A stretch of DNA of 20,656 nt from a virus (Duplodnaviria > Heunggongvirae > Uroviricota > Caudoviricetes): positions 1 through 20,656 of the IMG/VR virus record IMGVR_UViG_2778261572_000002; one strand, written 5' to 3'. Shown in pieces: positions 1 to 11,998 of this stretch. The position numbers were made by a program, and so were the translations under genes. The notes under the pieces were generated by a model, which had not been told where the DNA came from, ran no database searches, and saw nothing but the letters and a program-made list of their open reading frames with translations. Position 1 is the stretch's first letter, and every line of letters begins with the position of its first letter.

Positions 1-769
1 GGCCGGTATCGCCTTTAGGACCCTGTTCACCCCGTGGCCCTTGCTCGCCCTGAGGACCTGTGTCGCCTTTAGGACCCTGTTCACCCCGTGGCCCTTGCTC
101 GCCCTGAGGACCTGTGTCGCCTTTAGGACCTGTTTCTCCCTGCGGGCCTTGCGGTCCTGGTGTTTTTGCAATCTCTTTCGCTTCTTCCAGCGCTGTCAGT
201 GCACCGGACTCGTGCAACTCCGCGTTTTTTGCTGCCTGTTCTGCACGATCTGCATCCAGTGAAACCGAAGACACAATTTGTTCCACGTGCTTTTTATCTT
301 CGGCAACGGATTCTGCATTCTGCTGTACGTTATCCGCCAGCGTCTCGCAGTCGCTCTTAATTTGTTGCGCATCAGCGACATGTTGCCCGGCCTGTCGTTC
401 GCTTTTCGCTGCCGCTTCTGCGCTCTGCTGCGCCTGCGCCACCATTTTCTCAAAGCGTTTCACTACATCCGGCTTTAAATCGCCTTCATCAAGGGCAGTC
501 AGAAAATCATTCAGTGTGCCGGGCTTTGAGTCGTCGTAAACCGAAATGTCACCCACGCAGCACTTAGGGCCGTTCTTTTGCTTGATGTGTACGGTGTATT
601 TGCCTTTTTGTGCTTCAAAGGCATACTGTCCCGCCGCATCGGTTTCAATAACCGCAAATGATTCAATGACAACTTCACTGGTATTAACCAGTGCATCTAA
701 ATAAATTTTGCATTCCGCCATCGGAACGCCAGCGCCATTAATCAGCGCACCTGAAATTAATACAGACAT
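1..769 (-). CDS. Side tail fibre protein (lambda Stf-like N-terminal domain plus collagen-like Gly-X-Y repeat region); partial, C-terminus lies beyond window start
   Basis: Minus-strand ATG at 767-769 preceded by GAGG (spacing about 4); the frame stays open to position 1, so it is absent from the ORF track (no stop in window). My translation: [90 protein letters not shown]..., which resembles the lambda Stf N-terminus as I recall it (...[15 protein letters not shown]). The last ~160 nt encode [34 protein letters not shown]... Confidence 0.75.
11..118. repeat. Perfect 54-bp tandem direct repeat, 2 copies (11-64 and 65-118), with a diverged third copy from 119; in-frame coding repeat of six Gly-X-Y triplets
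   Basis: Seen directly: gcctttaggaccctgttcaccccgtggcccttgctcgccctgaggacctgtgtc occurs twice head to tail. 54 bp = 18 codons of the fibre gene. The array probably continues past the window start. Confidence 0.9.
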
Positions 770-816
770 AAAGCCTCTGAACTGAAAACGGCCGCCAGAC
801 AGCGACCGTTATTGTT

Positions 817-1341
817 TTACACGTCAGGTTTTTCCGGCCACTGAATTAAATCAAAGGAAGATTTATCACTGACCTGACTTAAATCCAGCGCCTTTACCGC
901 TTTGATATATGCCATCCACTGCGTAAGACGGGCTTTATCATCGTCGCTGATGGTGCCCAGCTCCAGCTCGATTTTCCAGTCGGAGGTGATGTCCTTCGCT
1001 TCATTCAGCAGGCGCTGGCGTTGTTTTTCTGCCAGTTGCGAATAATCAACAGGAACCGGCAGCACTTCGCCGTCCTGGTAATACCAGCTGGCTTCAATGC
1101 CAAAACCTTCCGGCAGTTCATCCACTTCCACAATAGTGAAGCCAGCCGGATAAAGACGGGACACGTCTTCCGCCATCGAATAAATCACGCCGGTTTCCGG
1201 GTGAATACACAATTTGTATTTCTTCGTGAATTTATCCAGTGATTCATAAAAATCCTGTCCGTCTTCACTACGGAAATACTGAATATTTTCACCATAAGGC
1301 ATCTCTTCCGGGTAATAACGCGTGACGTTTCTGAGTTCCAT
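817..1341 (-). CDS. Tail fibre assembly protein (Tfa / Mu U-like chaperone)
   Basis: Sits immediately downstream of the tail fibre gene. Start moved from the track's 1377 to ATG at 1341 (MELRNVTRYYPEE...), which has a strong SD (TAAGGAGAAAATA-ATG) and lies after the upstream stop. Size and C-terminal region look like phage Tfa chaperones. Confidence 0.8.
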   Translation of the reverse strand: MELRNVTRYYPEEMPYGENIQYFRSEDGQDFYESLDKFTKKYKLCIHPETGVIYSMAEDVSRLYPAGFTIVEVDELPEGFGIEASWYYQDGEVLPVPVDYSQLAEKQRQRLLNEAKDITSDWKIELELGTISDDDKARLTQWMAYIKAVKALDLSQVSDKSSFDLIQWPEKPDV

Positions 1342-1355
1342 TATTTTCTCCTTAA

Positions 1356-2159
1356 TTAACCTGATACAGTGCGCCATGAACCATTGATATAAATCTGAGT
1401 TTGTTTGTAATACACGCCGCCGATGTTATCCGCAGAGTTACTGCCGGTATCCTGAACCTGAATACCGGACAGGGTGCAACCAGACGGCGCGCGAAATGTC
1501 CAGGTCATCCAGTTACCGCCGGGATTGTGAAACACTTCGCTGGTGTATCTGAAATCACGCACAGCACCGGAATCGGTACTGCTGATGGTGATATCGCTGC
1601 TGCCATCAAACAGCACATTGTTAATCCTGCGGGCCGTCTGAAGCCGGGTTGCCGTTCCGGCGTTGCCGCCGATGTTGTTGATAGTGATATCCGAAGTCAG
1701 GGCCATGCCGTTGACCTTACGCGCTTTTGGCACACCGCTGATGTTATCCAGAAACAATTGTTTATTCGGGATGTCTGCACCGTTACGGTCTTTTGCCAGT
1801 CTGGCGTTTGCGTTATCCATCGCAATCTTGACCGCTTTTGGCGTAGCTGCTTCTGTTTCTGATTCACTGTTAACAGCACTGTTAAGCTGCACCACGCCTT
1901 TTTGCGTCAGTGATGCATCCGGGACTTTCTGGCCAATAAACGAGGTCAGCGCCTCAACCAGCTGGTTTTGTTTTTCCGGGTCAGGGGTGACGCCAGCCTC
2001 TTTAAGGACGTTAATCACCTCCTGCTGCAAATCACGCGTTGCCGCCTGATGATTATTCATAAATTCAGCAGTAACGATGGTTCCCTCAATTCCCTGAGTC
2101 GGGTCACCGTCATGAAATAACTTATCCGGCGTATTCACCGGGGGCATTAAATTCCGCAT
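1356..2159 (-). CDS. Tail fibre protein (short Stf / P2 H / Mu S family)
   Basis: 267 aa. Contains the conserved tail-fibre motif KGVVQLNSAVNSESETEAATPKAVKIAMDNANARLA (compare lambda Stf / P2 H ...QLSSATNSTSETLAATPKAVK...) and a later ...GTATRLQTARRINNVLFDGSSDITIS motif. GGAGG SD; ATG shares one nt with the upstream TAA. Confidence 0.85.
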   Translation of the reverse strand: MRNLMPPVNTPDKLFHDGDPTQGIEGTIVTAEFMNNHQAATRDLQQEVINVLKEAGVTPDPEKQNQLVEALTSFIGQKVPDASLTQKGVVQLNSAVNSESETEAATPKAVKIAMDNANARLAKDRNGADIPNKQLFLDNISGVPKARKVNGMALTSDITINNIGGNAGTATRLQTARRINNVLFDGSSDITISSTDSGAVRDFRYTSEVFHNPGGNWMTWTFRAPSGCTLSGIQVQDTGSNSADNIGGVYYKQTQIYINGSWRTVSG

Positions 2160-2731
2160 TATTCCTCCACCTCATACGTGAAATAACAGTCTGTAAAAGC
2201 CGGTTTAAGGTCTTTAAACGTGTTTTCTAAAATGGATTCCCCGAAGGCCGTCAGCGGTTCACCGGTTGCCGATGCACCCGTTCTGAACCGGTAGACCGGT
2301 GTTTTTGTCCCGATAACATTGACCTGCCACGCCCAGCGGATTTCCGGTATCAGCAGACGGTCACCACAGCGGTTTATCCCCACCCGGAACGGTCGCGGCT
2401 CCGTAATGGTGATGGTATAGCCCAGACTGGCGGCAAGGCTTTTGAAGTAAGGGATTGACAGACCACCCGTGGCAGCCATTTTTACCAGTATGTTTTGCCG
2501 CCGCTCCTGTTGTGTTGCCCCTTCACGGGGGACAACACCGTACACGCGCTCCCAGTCGGACAGCGTCATCGATGCCTGCAACGGGGTGATTTGTGCCAGA
2601 ACGCGCGCTGCTGACGCCTTCACGGCTTCCATGACGTCAGCCTCGGCTGTCAGTTCTGCGGAAATATATTTCCCGTTCAGGTCATAACTGACAGGTGGCA
2701 GCATGGCGCGAAATAAATCGACCATATTCAT
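2159..2731 (-). CDS. Mu gp48-like tail/baseplate protein (DUF2313, YmfQ-like)
   Basis: Start moved from the track's TTG at 2767 to ATG at 2731 (MNMVDLFRAMLPPVSYDL...), which follows the baseplate J stop (2736-2738) and has a GAGGGG SD. Position between baseplate J and the tail fibre matches Mu gp48. Confidence 0.75.
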   Translation of the reverse strand: MNMVDLFRAMLPPVSYDLNGKYISAELTAEADVMEAVKASAARVLAQITPLQASMTLSDWERVYGVVPREGATQQERRQNILVKMAATGGLSIPYFKSLAASLGYTITITEPRPFRVGINRCGDRLLIPEIRWAWQVNVIGTKTPVYRFRTGASATGEPLTAFGESILENTFKDLKPAFTDCYFTYEVEE

Positions 2732-2735
2732 AAAA

Positions 2736-3815
2736 TCACCCCTCACGTGGAAAAGGCTGAATATCAATATTTCCCGGGCGCAGCCATTCCCACGTTGACG
2801 CGTTAATAATGGCTTTTACGTTGTCTGCTGGCGTAATGATTCGCCGGTCACTGACACCGGAAATTAATGAAATCTGGGTTTCCAGTTGTGAAATAATTAA
2901 TTCTTGCCCCGGCTCCAGTCGGTTCATAAAATCCGTGATAACGTCAGTTATCTGCGGTTTTATCTGCTCAACGGTCAGGCCGCTGGTTTTTACCCGGACA
3001 ACGAAATCAACGGCTTTTTTCGTCGGGGCCAGCACCATCGTGTCCTTCGCCGTCACCGGGCGAACTTCCTCAATATGTGCCAGCACGGCATTAATCAGTT
3101 CCTGCGAGGGGAGGTCATTGGCTGACGTAATGGCCACATCAACCGTTCCCAGTCCACGACGCAATGGCTCCACATATGCCGAGGTAACGCCATCCACTTC
3201 CAGCGCCCAGCGTTTGTAATCATATTTGTTACCGCCAGCGGGTGGCCTGCGCAGAATATCCAGATAACGCGCCAGCAGGTCGGCGTCACTTTCCCTGTCC
3301 GTTCCGCCAGTCAGGGATTTAATCGTCACCGTGCTGTTGATGCCTTCCGGCGGACTGACCAGCGTTGCCGTCTGCGTTGTGGATACGTTCGTCTGTGCGC
3401 CCGTGGTGGTGCTTTTTACCGTCACCTCCGCGCTGCCTTCATCACCGATGGTGCAGTCTGCGGTGGTGGCCACGCTGACACCTTCACCGCGAATTTCCGC
3501 ACCGGCTGGCAGCATCTTACCGGGGGTACCGGTAATCACCACCGGACCGGATGAGGCTGTTGCTTTTTTACGAAAAACATTGCGCGTGCGGCAGTGCAGC
3601 TCCAGATATTCAGGGTCTGCCGTGTCAGGAAACACCTGACGGAGGATCCACCCCTGATGCATATAAAGCCCGTCCGCCACGCCGGATACGGCATTGGCAC
3701 GAATGCGGTAATCGCTGTCAGCGCCGGTGTCGATGGTTTCTCCCGGCAGGGCGTTAGCGATATCACGTAGCTGGCGTTCTGTGTTTTCAGCAACGCCCGG
3801 AACAGGAAACGGCAT
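2736..3815 (-). CDS. Baseplate J-like protein (Mu gp47 / P2 gpJ family)
   Basis: 359 aa; internal region ...DRESDADLLARYLDILRRPPAGGNKYDYKRWALEVDGV... is typical of the Baseplate_J family. ATG overlaps the upstream stop (TAATG). Confidence 0.85.
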   Translation of the reverse strand: MPFPVPGVAENTERQLRDIANALPGETIDTGADSDYRIRANAVSGVADGLYMHQGWILRQVFPDTADPEYLELHCRTRNVFRKKATASSGPVVITGTPGKMLPAGAEIRGEGVSVATTADCTIGDEGSAEVTVKSTTTGAQTNVSTTQTATLVSPPEGINSTVTIKSLTGGTDRESDADLLARYLDILRRPPAGGNKYDYKRWALEVDGVTSAYVEPLRRGLGTVDVAITSANDLPSQELINAVLAHIEEVRPVTAKDTMVLAPTKKAVDFVVRVKTSGLTVEQIKPQITDVITDFMNRLEPGQELIISQLETQISLISGVSDRRIITPADNVKAIINASTWEWLRPGNIDIQPFPREG

Positions 3816-4165
3816 TACATAATCCTCACAGGGTGTTCAAACGTCTGCGGTGTGCCCGCGTTATCCGTGACGGTGATTAGCAGCAACAACCAGCCGCGCT
3901 GCCCCGTTTTTGTGTCAACGGTAATTGCTGTCGCCCGCCCGTCATCGAGCAGGGGCTGAAGTGCCTGGCTGGCATACTGCGCCGCCAGCCTGTGGACACG
4001 GGAAACGTCTTTTTCCCGCTTCAGTTCGTGCAGGCGTGACCCCAGCGACGCATCCGCCCAGTAACTGCCAAGCGGTGTCGCCAGTCGCAGATAAACCGCG
4101 TTATGGAGTGTATAAATCCGGCGGTGTTCGTAGTCGCCGGTTGCAGGTGAAATCGTCTGGTCCAT
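3815..4165 (-). CDS. Mu gp46-like baseplate protein
   Basis: 116 aa ORF between the spike and baseplate J, the synteny position of Mu gp46. Only ATG 4165 is available in frame after the upstream stop. Assignment is by position and size only. Confidence 0.6.
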   Translation of the reverse strand: MDQTISPATGDYEHRRIYTLHNAVYLRLATPLGSYWADASLGSRLHELKREKDVSRVHRLAAQYASQALQPLLDDGRATAITVDTKTGQRGWLLLLITVTDNAGTPQTFEHPVRIM

Positions 4166-4218: not shown

Positions 4219-4875
4219 TTAATTAACCGGCGTGTCAGACATGCCGTGTGGGGTCGGGTGTTTGTGCGTTCCGATTTTAACGCCATTAATGGTGACGTCA
4301 ACGGAGGTAATCACACCGCTTGTGTGGTTGATATTGCCTTCAAAGGTGGCAGTATATTTTCCTTTGCCGCCTTTAATGGCCATACCCCCATTACCGGATA
4401 TTTTCCCTTCAGCAATTAATTGCTCACTTGCGGTAAGTTGGGGAGTAATAAAACCGGCGCTGTCCTTTGCTTCAACTTCAAACGAATTACATTTCACCCG
4501 GTAAATATCACACTCCGTTTCAATCACACGTCCGCGCTTCAGCACAATTTTCGCGCCTTCATCGGTATACAGGGCCACCTCGCCGGGTTTCAGTTCCGTC
4601 AGGCGATATGCGCCGTGCTCGGTGGCCACGACGACGGTATGGGAGGTATTACCGTTCAGCGGAACGGCAATACCCATCGAGCCGGGCGGCGGGGATGTGG
4701 TGAGGCCGTAATGCTGAAAATACTCCGCACCGTCCAGCTGTTCGCCTGCCAGCCCGTTCAGCTGGAGAAGCTGTACTTTGGTCGAACTGTCCACCGTACC
4801 GGTCACCACCCTGAATGCCTGGCGAACGGCGACCAGTGCCTGCTGTATGCGCTGATTAACCTTGTCCCACATCAT
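4219..4875 (-). CDS. Baseplate central spike / puncturing device (Mu gp45, P2 gpV-like)
   Basis: 218 aa. C-terminus ...GVKIGTHKHPTPHGMSDTPVN carries a His-rich apex motif like those of Mu gp45 / gpV-type spikes. ATGA overlap with the upstream gene. Confidence 0.8.
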   Translation of the reverse strand: MMWDKVNQRIQQALVAVRQAFRVVTGTVDSSTKVQLLQLNGLAGEQLDGAEYFQHYGLTTSPPPGSMGIAVPLNGNTSHTVVVATEHGAYRLTELKPGEVALYTDEGAKIVLKRGRVIETECDIYRVKCNSFEVEAKDSAGFITPQLTASEQLIAEGKISGNGGMAIKGGKGKYTATFEGNINHTSGVITSVDVTINGVKIGTHKHPTPHGMSDTPVN

Positions 4876-6083
4876 TTCTCCCAGACCTTAACAATGGCGA
4901 CCTCTTTTTTCTTTTTGCCCCTGCGGTGATGGCGTTTCTTCTCGCGCGGGAAGGCATCAGGTATCCACACGCCGTCCTCCTTAAAGCGAAGACGGGTTGT
5001 CTGTCCGTTCCGGCCTACGCTGAACTCACGCCCCATCAGGAAAAAGATGGCGTCGATGCCGTGGGGTTCGCTGACAATCCGCACACGCTGGCCGGGCTGC
5101 CACAGGACACCGTCCGCCGTGCGATGGCCTGCAACCAGTGCGACGATATCCAGCCCCGACAGGCGGGCATCACTCATCATTTTTTTTGCGCGCCAGTTCA
5201 CCTGCTCCATGTTACTGGTGTCGCCCTGGGTGATTATCTGCGGGCGGTAATAATCCACGGTGGGGTCGGTGGCCACGGCTTTCATGTTATGAATGCCTGT
5301 CTGACCACTGCCTGTATTACCGCTGTCCTGCCCGGATAATGTGCGCACGCTGCCGTCCTCGTTCCAGATATCCAGCGGCACCACGGCTACCTGTTTCTTG
5401 CTGTCTGCGCGGCGGGCGTGGCTCTGGGCCAGCACCGTTAGCTCGGAGAAACAGCCGTTAATGGACCGGGTATCGTCCAGCTCCATCACGTTGTTCCCGG
5501 TGCCGTCCAGCTTCATAATCAGCGTGTCCACCGGCGTGGTGGTGTAGTCAGGGCCACCCACAACCAGCGTCCCGTCAGGCTCAAACCACGGCCATAAGCC
5601 GCGACCGGCGGCAGCTTTAGCCAGTGCATCCCACGCACGCATCCCCGGCTCTATAACGACCTTGTCATTACGTGACACACCGGACGCCTGAATACGGATG
5701 CGCTGTATCCCCAGCGGTCTGACAATCCTGTCGATGACCTCGTCCAGTGTCAGCTGGTTGGCACTGAATACCGGCGCGGCACAGTCTACCAGAATGGCGG
5801 CATCATCACGCCCGGACAGGGTCAGCGTGCAGCTCTGACGGGATACACTGCGGCGCACGCTGTCCACGCGACCACTGAGGACCGTCTCGTCTCCCACCTG
5901 CAAACGGACCGGCGCACCCCGGACGATATCCGCCGGGAACACCTTTTCAGGCAGTCCCAGCTGAAGCTGCCACCCGTCGGCGGCTTTCAGGAAATCGCTG
6001 TCAATACGATAACTGCTCCAGTCAGAATGCGACCTTCCGGCAATGACCAGGCTGATTTTGTCGTCGTTATTTTGCGTAGGCAT
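4872..6083 (-). CDS. Mu P-like baseplate hub / tail protein (gp44 family)
   Basis: 403 aa; sits between the N-like protein and the spike, as in Mu (N-P-gp45). Overlaps the upstream gene by 17 nt. Confidence 0.75.
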   Translation of the reverse strand: MPTQNNDDKISLVIAGRSHSDWSSYRIDSDFLKAADGWQLQLGLPEKVFPADIVRGAPVRLQVGDETVLSGRVDSVRRSVSRQSCTLTLSGRDDAAILVDCAAPVFSANQLTLDEVIDRIVRPLGIQRIRIQASGVSRNDKVVIEPGMRAWDALAKAAAGRGLWPWFEPDGTLVVGGPDYTTTPVDTLIMKLDGTGNNVMELDDTRSINGCFSELTVLAQSHARRADSKKQVAVVPLDIWNEDGSVRTLSGQDSGNTGSGQTGIHNMKAVATDPTVDYYRPQIITQGDTSNMEQVNWRAKKMMSDARLSGLDIVALVAGHRTADGVLWQPGQRVRIVSEPHGIDAIFFLMGREFSVGRNGQTTRLRFKEDGVWIPDAFPREKKRHHRRGKKKKEVAIVKVWEK

Positions 6084-9809: not shown

Positions 9810-10193
9810 TTATTCCGTAGCGCCCGAGGATGAGGACTGCGAGCCGGAGTCCGGCGAGCCGGGATTCCCGCCGCTCCGCTTTACCTTCAGAATGTCACGT
9901 GCCGCTTTCAGAATCTCAAAATCTTCCGGCACCATATGGTCATACAACAGTTCCGCCGTCAGTTCTTCCTGCGGGATATCTCCCAGACGGACCAGCGTTG
10001 CCGCCATCACCGCACAGCGGTAGTAATAATCCGCCGCGAATCCAGCCACCGTCTGAAAGCGTTCTTCCGTTTCTTCCAGTGCCTGCCCGTTATCACGCAT
10101 GACCGGCAGACGCAGCTCAAAGTTTTTATGAAGGATACCGTTAAACTCCACGCCAACTGACAGTTCGCCGGTATGTGTATTAATCAAAGTCAT
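9810..10193 (-). CDS. Tail assembly chaperone (Mu gp41-like; lambda gpG analogue by position)
   Basis: 127 aa acidic protein between tail tube and tape measure; ATGA overlap with the tube gene. Assignment is by synteny. Confidence 0.6.
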   Translation of the reverse strand: MTLINTHTGELSVGVEFNGILHKNFELRLPVMRDNGQALEETEERFQTVAGFAADYYYRCAVMAATLVRLGDIPQEELTAELLYDHMVPEDFEILKAARDILKVKRSGGNPGSPDSGSQSSSSGATE

Positions 10194-10564
10194 CCTGTCA
10201 CCTTCCTGAGTGCAGCCATTTTGATATCAATTTTCGCTTCACTGTCGACGGTGTATTTCTCACCCACTTCGGTTGTGAAGCAGTCCAGATAGGAGGTGCG
10301 CTTGCCGCTGTTACTGAGCGGATAAATTGAGATTTTCACACCTTCCAGATTTTCCCAGTCCGGCTCGTTGGTATCAGGGATAACCGCCGAAACTGAAATA
10401 TCGTAAGTGGCAATGCCACGGGCAAAGCCTTTAGCCCTGCCGGTTTTGTTCATGGTCTTGACCAGCTTTCGCCCGGTGTTGATCTGAACATCGAAGTCGG
10501 TGATCTCGATTTCCTGGCTGTCCACCTCCAGCACAATCGAGCCGACATATTCTTTAATGGACAT
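10190..10564 (-). CDS. Tail tube protein (Mu M-like)
   Basis: 124 aa ORF directly downstream of the sheath gene; AAGGAG SD 9 nt before ATG 10564. Confidence 0.85.
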   Translation of the reverse strand: MSIKEYVGSIVLEVDSQEIEITDFDVQINTGRKLVKTMNKTGRAKGFARGIATYDISVSAVIPDTNEPDWENLEGVKISIYPLSNSGKRTSYLDCFTTEVGEKYTVDSEAKIDIKMAALRKVTG

Positions 10565-10576
10565 TTACCGCGCTCC

Positions 10577-11998
10577 TTACAAAATCATGTCGATGCGACC
10601 GGCAAACACATGCAGGCCGTTAACCACATCCGCCGGAACCACGCAGTCGAGACGGTTTGCATCTTTCCCGTTTCGCTGAACGCGCAGCTTTGCCTTGTTC
10701 GCTTCCACGTTCTCCAGAATTTCCGCTTCCTCCAGCTTGATCAGCACGTCATACAGTTCGCTTTCCACTTTTGCGATAGTGCGGGTGCTGAGTTTTTCGC
10801 GCGGGAAGCGAAGGCTGATGCGTTCGCGGCACGCCTTGCGGGTGTAGTCCAGCGTTCTGATGGACGTGATATCCAGTAACGAGACGTCAGTCACGCCCTG
10901 TGCGTTAACCGTGTACGTACTGACCGCACGCACAATCTGTACCGTGTTACCCGGGCCAACCTCAACCGGCGTCAGGCCGTTATGCAGAGCGTTTTCCTGT
11001 TCGTTACGGCTTTCACGCTGTGACATGGCGACCACATCCAGCCCTGACAGCGCCAGCGAGTTCAGCGGACGCGCCGGGTCTTCCTCGCCCGCCATCACTG
11101 CGCCGTAGATGGCGGCCAGCACCGCTGGCAGCTTCACGGAGCCGCGATACCAGGGGATGGACACGCGCCCGCTGTTCACACCGGCTGCCAGGGTGATCCC
11201 GTTTCCGAGACTGCCCGTCCAGCCCGCACAGCCAATCGCGCCGCGCTGTTCCATCGCGTTCCCGGTTTTCTCCAGATGCTGCTTCAGGGCGGCAAGGGCT
11301 GGCGTGGTACTGAACGGACAAATCAGAATGTTGTGACCGGCGGCAAAGACCGCATCCAGTGCGGGCTGAATATCCGGATCCATTTCACCGTTCGCCATCG
11401 GCGTGGCGCTCACGGTCAGACCACCTGCCGTGGTGGATGCTGACAGGGTGATGTCATTCCCCCAGGCACCTTTGGTCCGGGTGGTGACCGTCAGCTGAGA
11501 GGCTTCCGATTGGTATTCCCCCGTAACCAGAAGCGAGGGCGTCTGCGTCATTGCTTCCACCAGTGCCGGAATGATTTTCGACGGTTCATCACCGGTTTCC
11601 ACATCCACCGTGACCTGCTCACCGGCAACCCATACCGACAGCGTGCCGCTGCTGGTTGCCGTGCCACTGACGGTAACTGCGCCGGTTGCCGCCTTTCCTG
11701 CGCCACTGTCTGCAATACCGATAACATCCAGTTGCAGATAGCTGTTGGCATTAATGGCCGCGCGCGCCATTGCAGCGGCCAGCGAACCGGCCCCGAAATA
11801 CACATCCGCTTCGTCTTCGGAATACACGGAAACGGCATTCAGGGGCGTGGCGGTGCCGCCTGACAGCATCGGGCCAATCACCAGAACACGCTGTTCATTA
11901 CCCGGCAGCGTGTTAACGGCCAGCCGGGTATTAAACTCAAAATGCACACCGGGCTTACGGATGCCGCCCGAAATGGTGTCAAACTGAATTTCACTCAT
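10577..11998 (-). CDS. Contractile tail sheath protein (Mu L-like)
   Basis: 473 aa; AGGTGG SD 6 nt upstream of the ATG. Size and position (before tube, after head-completion genes) are typical of myovirus sheath proteins. Confidence 0.9.
   Translation of the reverse strand: MSEIQFDTISGGIRKPGVHFEFNTRLAVNTLPGNEQRVLVIGPMLSGGTATPLNAVSVYSEDEADVYFGAGSLAAAMARAAINANSYLQLDVIGIADSGAGKAATGAVTVSGTATSSGTLSVWVAGEQVTVDVETGDEPSKIIPALVEAMTQTPSLLVTGEYQSEASQLTVTTRTKGAWGNDITLSASTTAGGLTVSATPMANGEMDPDIQPALDAVFAAGHNILICPFSTTPALAALKQHLEKTGNAMEQRGAIGCAGWTGSLGNGITLAAGVNSGRVSIPWYRGSVKLPAVLAAIYGAVMAGEEDPARPLNSLALSGLDVVAMSQRESRNEQENALHNGLTPVEVGPGNTVQIVRAVSTYTVNAQGVTDVSLLDITSIRTLDYTRKACRERISLRFPREKLSTRTIAKVESELYDVLIKLEEAEILENVEANKAKLRVQRNGKDANRLDCVVPADVVNGLHVFAGRIDMIL

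Follow-up and report, generated by a model that had tools for sequence, protein, structure and literature searches.

A lambda Stf-type second tail fibre follows the Mu S-like fibre at the end of the tail operon of an Escherichia coli Mu-like prophage

We analysed a 20,656-nucleotide stretch of viral DNA (IMG/VR record IMGVR_UViG_2778261572_000002, positions 1 to 20,656; hereafter the window), which holds the late region (head, tail and baseplate) of an Escherichia coli Mu-like prophage, with every gene on the minus strand. Past the baseplate wedge gene gp48 stand, in tandem and co-oriented, a fibre of 267 amino acids (aa) (fibre 1; 1356-2159), its Caudo_TAP tail fibre assembly protein (Tfa; 174 aa; 817-1341) and a second fibre gene (fibre 2; 2-769), which is open to the window edge. 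We consider it probable that two independent receptor-binding modules close this tail operon, giving a virion with a baseplate fibre and a collar-anchored accessory side fibre. The gene coordinates and domain calls of an earlier sequence-only reading of this DNA are borne out by the open reading frames (ORFs), their translations and Pfam. That reading had also taken the arrangement to be unusual for a Mu-type baseplate module, which does not hold: GenBank has contained it from phiP27 onwards, and it is found again in dozens of proviruses. The four-gene arrangement, completed by a second chaperone gene, is known, routinely annotated and in databases since 2002, so that it serves as a useful pointer and is not a surprise; the finding belongs to the known kind of accessory Stf-type side fibres and multi-fibre myophages.

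The N-terminal domain of fibre 2 is, as judged from sequence comparison and a structural model, a collar domain of the lambda side tail fibre (Stf) type. PF08400 is matched in full (profile 1-134 of 134) by residues 1-134 (E 3e-50, 170 bits against a cutoff of 26.6), and phmmer against PDB sequences returned the 94-residue Ur-lambda StfN chain (9e7m/9mgh; E 9e-17, fibre 2 residues 1-93) and a weak match to the XM1 collar spike gp40 (E 6e-4). The fold predicted by AF2 for residues 1-140 (pLDDT 80) is the StfN collar fold, a six-stranded beta-sandwich plus a helix, and Foldseek found two significant matches only for this model in the PDB, namely 9e7m_Ta (TM 0.90, rmsd 2.2 Å, 41% identity) and, distantly, the XM1 neck collar spike 7kjk_A3 (E 1e-6, TM 0.58/0.63, 22% identity). 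The lambda Stf-like attachment domain that the sequence-only reading had proposed is therefore confirmed, and the similarity is strong. The N-terminus of fibre 2 is unrelated to that of Mu S and should therefore not use the gp48 socket.

The layout of fibre 2 runs from this predicted beta-sandwich (residues 1-94; 488-769; PF08400, phmmer and AF2/Foldseek) through a linker and an Ala/Gln-rich helical, coiled-coil-like proximal stalk (residues 95-203; 161-487; AF2, with PF08400 reaching residue 134 and a long modelled helix over residues 102-139) into a collagen-like G-X-Y stalk cut by the window edge (residues 204-256; 2-160; PF01391 E 5e-9). The collagen repeats are uninterrupted over residues 204-256 and are encoded by a 54-nt (18-aa) tandem repeat of 2.4 copies with 98% matches (window 9-134), which agrees with the collagen-like stalk of the earlier reading; PF01391 reaches E 7e-85 in an 852-aa homologue. 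The gene starts from an ATG at 769, 47 nt past the Tfa stop and behind a GAGG ribosome-binding site, and stays open for 256 codons to window base 2, the window starting inside the collagen repeat. No signal peptide or secretion feature is apparent in fibre 2 by reading alone, with no signal-peptide predictor run.

What lies past position 1, where the earlier reading had advised extending the sequence, was read in relatives of the prophage and comprises the rest of fibre 2, a putative chaperone gene of the DUF4376 family, the right end of the element and host DNA, with no invertase. These relatives carry an intact second fibre with its own chaperone, which speaks against the truncated remnant that the earlier reading had allowed for. 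In the 37-kb prophage of E. coli TUM9812 (locus L004), fibre 2 has 852 aa, is annotated as intact and is followed by a 199-aa DUF4376 protein and then by a host MFS transporter gene that is disrupted. The second TUM9812 copy (L001, NZ_CP128926), a degraded one that is 99.5% identical to window 1-2800, interrupts puuC; its fibre 2 (L001 13291-14769) forms an uninterrupted frame of 492 aa, in which some 140 residues are collagen and some 150 aa make up a C-terminal domain, and DUF4376 comes next here too. The two TUM9812 fibres (492 vs 852 aa) differ in collagen length. The STEC313 homologue (L008; 567 aa) combines the same N-terminal part with a coiled-coil stalk that lacks collagen and a different tip, and is also followed by DUF4376. 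The DUF4376 gene lies directly 3' of fibre 2 in the relatives (PF14301, E 7e-16), and the C-terminal domain found in TUM9812 fibre 2 has no Pfam or PHROG match. Most database relatives of fibre 2 are 'partial' proteins, many of them stopping at a similar point, which would fit assemblies that often break inside such fibres, in the collagen repeat. For partial PF08400 N-termini from E. coli and Salmonella (P0005, P0026, P0028, P0030-P0032), the NCBI/nr entry reads 'shikimate transporter, partial' in several cases and 'M14 carboxypeptidase N/E family protein' in one; on PF08400 fibres these names look propagated and wrong.

The right end of the element (...CGCGAAGTTACA) is identical at three host sites and lies 77 nt after the DUF4376 stop; its terminal letters are ...GAAGTTACA, ending ...GTTACA. 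The insertions are inside puuC, inside the MFS transporter gene and next to yjfK, and the flanking host DNA differs between them. The left end of the element starts with TG and the right end finishes with CA, and the flanks of the puuC insertion (GCGTG / ACGTG), at one site and around a degraded copy, agree in 4 of the 5 bases that a target-site duplication would span. Since fibre 2 and DUF4376 are the last genes before an identical transposon end at three host sites, the cassette belongs to the phage itself, and a fibre borrowed from a neighbouring prophage is ruled out by its place inside the element ends at all three insertions. Repeated (C)AATTCTGGGC motifs, direct and inverted, occur at both prophage ends (L001 12613-12694; L004 ~11800-11881; L008 ~5135-5217; left end L001 ~24950-25100) and are probably transposase-binding sites.

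Fibre 1, to judge by its alignments, is a shortened orthologue of Mu S (267 vs 504 aa). Its residues 4-162 align with residues 12-198 of Mu S at 39% identity (E 8e-32), a part that spans the constant region 5' of the G segment (boundary at about residue 169, computed from annotation), and its best matches among PDB sequences are to Mu S (5yvq/9ki1, E 7e-26). Besides its S-constant-like N-terminal part, it has a Phage_fiber_2 repeat (PF03406, residues 83-123) and a C-terminal tip domain; the tip, the last ~70 aa (residues 197-267), matches the short tail fibre of phiTE (9cuy, E 2e-16) and is 78% identical to the C-terminus of tail1 of Rac-SA53. The chaperone of fibre 1, Tfa (PF02413, E 1e-21; phrog_136, E 4e-56), has Mu U as its best PDB match (5yvq_B, E 1e-15); an in-frame upstream ATG at 1377 would make it 186 aa long, and in a near-identical genome PGAP annotates it at 174 aa. 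The ATG of fibre 1 overlaps the gp48 stop as TAATG (window 2157-2161), which suggests that gp48 and fibre 1 are translationally coupled.

Fibre 1 and Tfa thus correspond to the S and U genes of Mu and, like them, directly follow gp48, and in both phages two receptor specificities would be available. In Mu, the position of the cassette is held by S', U', gin, com and mom. Unlike the Mu G segment, the stretch from Tfa to the prophage end contains neither an invertase nor an inverted copy of the fibre genes in the two TUM9812 prophages and in STEC313, which rules out an invertible cassette, and no convincing gix site was seen by eye in the part of the fibre 1 region that aligns with the Mu crossover region. 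The second specificity would instead come from a separate co-oriented fibre, presumably displayed together with fibre 1 and not alternately. A relative keeps the invertase: the Mu-like phage within the Stx2c phage LC727881 (L005 5911-10639) has a 321-aa S-like fibre with a tip resembling that of fibre 1, an inverted Tfa and a Gin-like invertase, after which comes a 680-aa ORF.

The 47-nt gap between Tfa and fibre 2 holds a stem-loop (783-811, minus strand) with, by reading, a 9-bp stem and a 6-nt loop, followed by UUUUCAGUU. Its 71-nt context folds at -22.9 kcal/mol (z = -3.0), with ViennaRNA drawing a 10-bp stem and a 4-nt loop, and its inner part is listed by a terminator scan. The structure is kept in the Mu-like relatives, where changes mostly preserve the pairing, and is absent before fibre 2 in phiP27 and Rac-SA53. 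It may be a weak terminator, an attenuator or an RNA-stability element that tunes fibre 2 expression.

The order fibre, Caudo_TAP, PF08400 fibre and DUF4376 is common to phiP27 (L54-L57, present in GenBank record AJ298298) and Rac-SA53 (tail1-4), where it also stands at the prophage end. An N-domain of the PF08400 type occurs in 299 phage records; those listed are nearly all lambdoid or other siphophages, the lambdoid N-domains being 43-46% identical to that of fibre 2. Only four listed records, from three phages, fall in the band of 60-80% identity, which includes Rac-SA53; phiP27 and vB_Apl-pPE4 are the other DNA-level matches, and a contractile tail was confirmed only for phiP27 and Rac-SA53. 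A scan of IMG/VR with an alignment of the three known N-domains gave 80 loci. GTDB genomes yielded no confirmed locus with a single N-domain and one Salmonella locus with the three-sequence alignment, making 81 loci that were analysed by script. A gp48-type gene lies at most 3.5 kb upstream of fibre 2 in 53 of the 81, and a Caudo_TAP gene ends within 120 nt of the fibre 2 start in 48. The fibre 2 ORF is complete in 61 loci (147-1047 aa), with at least 405 aa in 58 of them; a DUF4376 gene follows within 60 nt of its stop in 45 of these 61; of the 16 without one, about 11 stop at or close to a contig edge.

The cassette also occurs after a third set of tail genes. In 16 loci (L035, 1091-6976, and 15 like it in IMG/VR) Tfa and fibre 2 are separated by about 6 kb of tail genes in P2 order (sheath, tube, E, tape measure, U, D), and fibre 2 with DUF4376 stands downstream of both fibre 1/Tfa and this block. 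The cassette thus closes a third kind of contractile-tail operon as well. The L035 locus adjoins uspF-like and porin-like genes, resembling the uspF-adjacent end of Rac-SA53.

The tail proteins of the window are 23-41% identical to those of phiP27. With Rac-SA53, compared over its baseplate wedge and fibre genes, and with the P2-order locus, compared from sheath to gpD and over its fibre genes, BLAST matches were limited to Tfa, parts of fibre 1 and the N-terminal part of fibre 2. The latter is 65-73% identical to its counterparts in phiP27, Rac-SA53 and the P2-order locus (up to 74% within phiP27 and Rac-SA53), and this figure divides unevenly, with 51-53% over residues 1-70 and 90-96% over residues 71-140. 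In DNA, tail3 of Rac-SA53 agrees with window 283-564 (residues 69-162) at 92.6% identity and L56 of phiP27 with window 310-564 at 85.5%, and similarity left of about base 283 is lost in most E. coli relatives. The sequence-only reading had offered a dual-fibre virion or a mosaic junction with another phage lineage as alternatives, and both are partly true: the cassette is inside the phage at its three host sites, and it is also mosaic, given the 92.6% DNA identity to Rac-SA53 beside tail proteins of 23-41% identity or undetectable similarity. The N-domain is 83-99% identical in nine loci with the gp47/gp48 type of the window (L016 for gp48 only) and 59-74% identical in loci with phiP27- or Rac-type baseplate genes. 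The N-domain subtype thus tracks the tail type, as expected if the beta-sandwich were fitted to its own tail. In our reading the cassette combines a tail-specific beta-sandwich, a widely shared linker and coiled coil that would be a platform for recombination, and stalks, tips and chaperones that are exchanged freely.

Known systems indicate how such fibres might be mounted. In the Mu virion, cryo-EM resolves six gp49 (S) trimers, the N-terminus of each anchored on the gp48 docking loop 133-155 (PMC11915804). In Ur-lambda, 12 StfN domains from four trimers form a collar round the gpV/gpM junction, and Stf is described as conserved in siphophages and myophages (PMC12617516, Sci Adv 2025). Fibre 2 shares with Ur-lambda Stf/Tfa the homologous N-terminal beta-sandwich and, by prediction, the passage from linker to trimeric helical stalk to distal receptor-binding part, the last as seen in relatives; the Ur-lambda Stf is likewise a non-essential accessory fibre encoded after the main tail-tip genes, and some members of the family, such as Rac-SA53 tail3, contain a Phage_fiber_2 repeat. 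They differ in that the fibre 2 stalk is collagen-like whereas that of lambda is all coiled coil, in that the chaperone in the relatives is DUF4376 and that of lambda is Caudo_TAP, and in the tail itself, the siphophage collar sitting on an exposed gpV/gpM junction that in Mu-type tails lies under sheath and baseplate. Among solved structures of contractile-tail phages, we found a related, though distant (22% identical), N-domain only in XM1 gp40 (PDB 7kjk), six trimers of which sit on the neck via an Ig-like N-terminal domain (PMC10457771), the comparison with fibre 2 being to gp40 residues 1-126. It resembles the proposed fibre 2 in being a trimeric fibre, six per virion, with a ring of Ig-like N-domains; its neck contacts are the connector gp4 and the terminator gp5. 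Homologues of Mu gp36 and gp37 are present in the window, and docking on a neck of this kind would be hypothetical. phiP27 and Rac-SA53, unlike the window phage, are of the integrase type, non-transposable and equipped with other heads; the baseplate proteins of phiP27 share the 23-41% identity given above and those of Rac-SA53 show no BLAST-detectable similarity, and their second fibres have other stalks and tips, which lack collagen.

Collagen-like proteins and DUF4376 chaperones have each been described before. EPcl proteins of enterohaemorrhagic E. coli (EHEC) were tabulated with PfN (PF08400), PCoil and Col domains (Ghosh et al. 2012, PMC3368898). The order PfN, coiled coil and collagen is that of fibre 2; unlike the tabulated EPcl proteins, which have PfC (PF06820) and PfC2 C-terminal domains, the TUM9812 homologue was found to have neither, a Pfam search of it giving no PF06820. 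The EPcl proteins reportedly come from lambdoid O157 prophages and not from Mu-type ones. DUF4376 proteins are annotated as tail-fibre chaperones in the Alteromonas phages V22 and A5 (PMC10579305), and a study of V22 gives a tail-fibre chaperone as required for host recognition (PMC7289586). The V22 and A5 proteins have the same DUF4376 domain and a distant sequence, and the DUF4376 gene compared with them, a putative chaperone gene by position and family, is that of the relatives, not of the window.

We accordingly picture the two modules in the following manner. The N-terminus of fibre 1 would plug into the gp48 docking loop, with six trimers per baseplate as in Mu, and its tip would be folded by the neighbouring Caudo_TAP chaperone. 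The second module would comprise the collar domain (~94 residues), the linker and coiled coil, a collagen stalk whose length varies, a C-terminal receptor-binding domain and the DUF4376 chaperone, the last two being seen only in relatives. The two fibres, having unrelated N-termini, should not compete for one socket. Trimers of fibre 2 would most likely ring a six-fold part of the tail with their N-domains, for which the lambda tube/tip junction and the XM1 neck are precedents, the neck of XM1 being the only one from a contractile tail; DUF4376 would assist in folding the collagen stalk and the tip that fibre 2 has of its own. For Mu-like phages no docking site other than the gp48 fibre socket has been described. 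The resulting virion would have two receptor specificities, and its collagen fibre, long and flexible, would make the first adsorption faster or broader in range, as lambda Stf does, without being essential. The cassette takes the place of the Mu G segment and gin, and the phage would therefore offer two specificities at once instead of switching between them. We hold it to be an even prospect that the Stf-type collar fibre with DUF4376 is a portable, self-docking module on at least three contractile-tail types (Mu-like, phiP27/Rac-SA53-like and P2-gene-order), in which only the first ~68 residues are re-tuned, docking occurs away from gp48 (at the neck, the sheath or the baseplate rim) and dual specificity replaces G switching.

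Several points weigh against a virion with two such fibres. The fibre 2 gene is incomplete in the window itself, and in the puuC copy of TUM9812 PGAP flags it as a pseudogene ('incomplete, missing C-terminus', first 550 nt), though the ORF is open; this call is probably an annotation artefact of the collagen-length polymorphism. In the sister lineage JNE21-009 (E. coli O166:H15) the slot of fibre 2 and DUF4376 is taken by an unrelated 351-aa ORF, and because of this the cassette is to be seen as a dispensable, optional accessory. The stem-loop and U-tract before fibre 2 could lower its expression. In the comparison with phiP27, Rac-SA53 and the P2-order locus, none of the tail or neck proteins approaches the 65-73% identity of the N-terminal part of fibre 2 or is conserved along with it, so that no partner can be named, and the docking site must differ from that of lambda, whose collar wraps a naked tube at a site inaccessible on a sheathed tail. 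The literature searched holds no proteomic or structural data on the fibres of this phage, phiP27 or Rac-SA53, and no functional or experimental work on this cassette or fibre in a contractile-tail phage was found there (phiP27 fibres, Rac-SA53, PF08400, Mu-like dual fibres).

Three other explanations share some of this evidence. That fibre 2 is a decaying remnant here and not a working phage part would be in keeping with its running off the window, with the PGAP label, with the few related loci in which it is truncated (147 and 297 aa) and with the lineage that lacks the cassette; we think it unlikely, as the 256 codons contain no stop and cover PF08400 in full, the flagged ORF runs uninterrupted over 492 aa, includes a C-terminal domain and has a chaperone gene after it, the 852- and 567-aa copies are annotated as intact and 58 of the 61 complete related ORFs reach at least 405 aa. 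It is equally doubtful that fibre 2 docks on fibre 1 or on the same gp48 socket, as a branched fibre or as one of two mutually exclusive fibres. Branched or contacting fibres exist elsewhere, the long fibre of phiTE being hypothesised to touch the short one (PMC11972413), and fibre 1 is unusually short beside Mu S, as an adaptor might be. However, the fibre 1 proteins of phiP27, Rac-SA53 and the Mu-like phage have no common N-terminal or stalk region, what they share being limited to the Phage_fiber_2 repeat and, in the case of Rac-SA53, the tip at the C-terminus; the P2-order tail genes lie between the two fibres in 16 loci, and the two solved relatives of the N-domain bind tail or neck rings, not fibres.

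We regard it as slightly more improbable still that the cassette is cargo (a moron) serving the lysogen or another element, as a collagen-like surface protein or as a fibre for a co-resident phage or satellite, and is not a virion part. Its place at the very end of the prophage is the usual one for accessory genes (gin, com and mom in Mu), a terminator-like hairpin stands in front of it, unrelated genes take its place in relatives, and a catalogue from pathogenic E. coli includes collagen-like PF08400 proteins that EHEC prophages encode (PMC3368898). Yet fibre 2 is co-oriented and tightly spaced with the late operon, beginning 47 nt past the Tfa stop behind its GAGG site, brings its own fibre chaperone and shows no secretion feature apparent by reading, where no predictor was run; moreover, the co-variation of its N-domain subtype with the linked tail type is hard to explain unless it docks there. 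The two-module virion, with fibre 1 on the baseplate and fibre 2 anchored by a collar, is our preferred explanation.

The remainder of the window identifies the phage, which on its gene content is a Mu-like transposable prophage of E. coli. Upstream of fibre 1 lie the baseplate wedge genes gp48/YmfQ (190 aa; 2159-2731; PF10076, E 2e-30), whose product is 32% identical to Mu gp48, and gp47/J (359 aa; 2736-3815; PF04865, E 7e-69, with a baseplate J/gp47 annotation in near-identical genomes), followed by the Pfam-assigned gp46 (3815-4165), gp45 (4219-4875) and gp44-like hub (4872-6083). The mechanical ORF of gp48 reaches a TTG at 2767, and relatives are annotated from the ATG at 2731. The remaining genes are also Mu-type (DNA_circ_N, tape measure, sheath, DUF2635, gp37, gp36 and gpT), and the Mu-type Pfam families found in the window are gp36, gp37, gpT, DNA_circ_N and gp44-48. 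Two small ORFs between tape measure and sheath (127 and 124 aa; 9810-10564) have no Pfam match and are, by position, probably the tail tube and a tail assembly chaperone. An Rfam scan of the window found no RNA family.

The window is matched over at least 80% of its length in 55 of 5,426 complete E. coli genomes. The 37-kb TUM9812 prophage is 97.8% identical to it over 92% of the window length, and DUF935, terminase and other Mu-type virion annotations are found there. Outside the part corresponding to the window, it encodes a Mu transposase (C-terminal domain), an AAA ATPase at the MuB position, Mor and GemA, and on this account we take the prophage to be a transposable Mu-like phage. A megablast of window 1-2800 against 50,697 phage records found only a common segment of 282 nt and no isolate of the exact phage. 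The gp44-like hub is a single 403-aa ORF in the window and is split into two ORFs (324 and 906 nt) in the TUM9812 prophage (L004 19126-20351), which, though 'complete', may be defective. The 351-aa ORF of JNE21-009 (L007 5889-6944) belongs to phrog_8291 (E 3e-239), of unknown function, and the JNE21-009 prophage sits inside the tail cluster of another prophage, just past a DNA circularization protein gene.

Fibres set the host range of temperate phages, engineered phages and tailocins. If a collar domain of the lambda Stf type can carry a second fibre on contractile tails as different as those of the Mu, phiP27 and P2 types, it would be a natural plug-in that adds a receptor specificity while leaving the baseplate untouched. 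The question of where it docks is testable with the solved collars (Ur-lambda, 2025; XM1, 2023), the Mu virion structure (2025) and complete prophages in sequenced E. coli. A collar-borne second fibre would also, if true, explain how this Mu-like lineage manages without the G-inversion switch.

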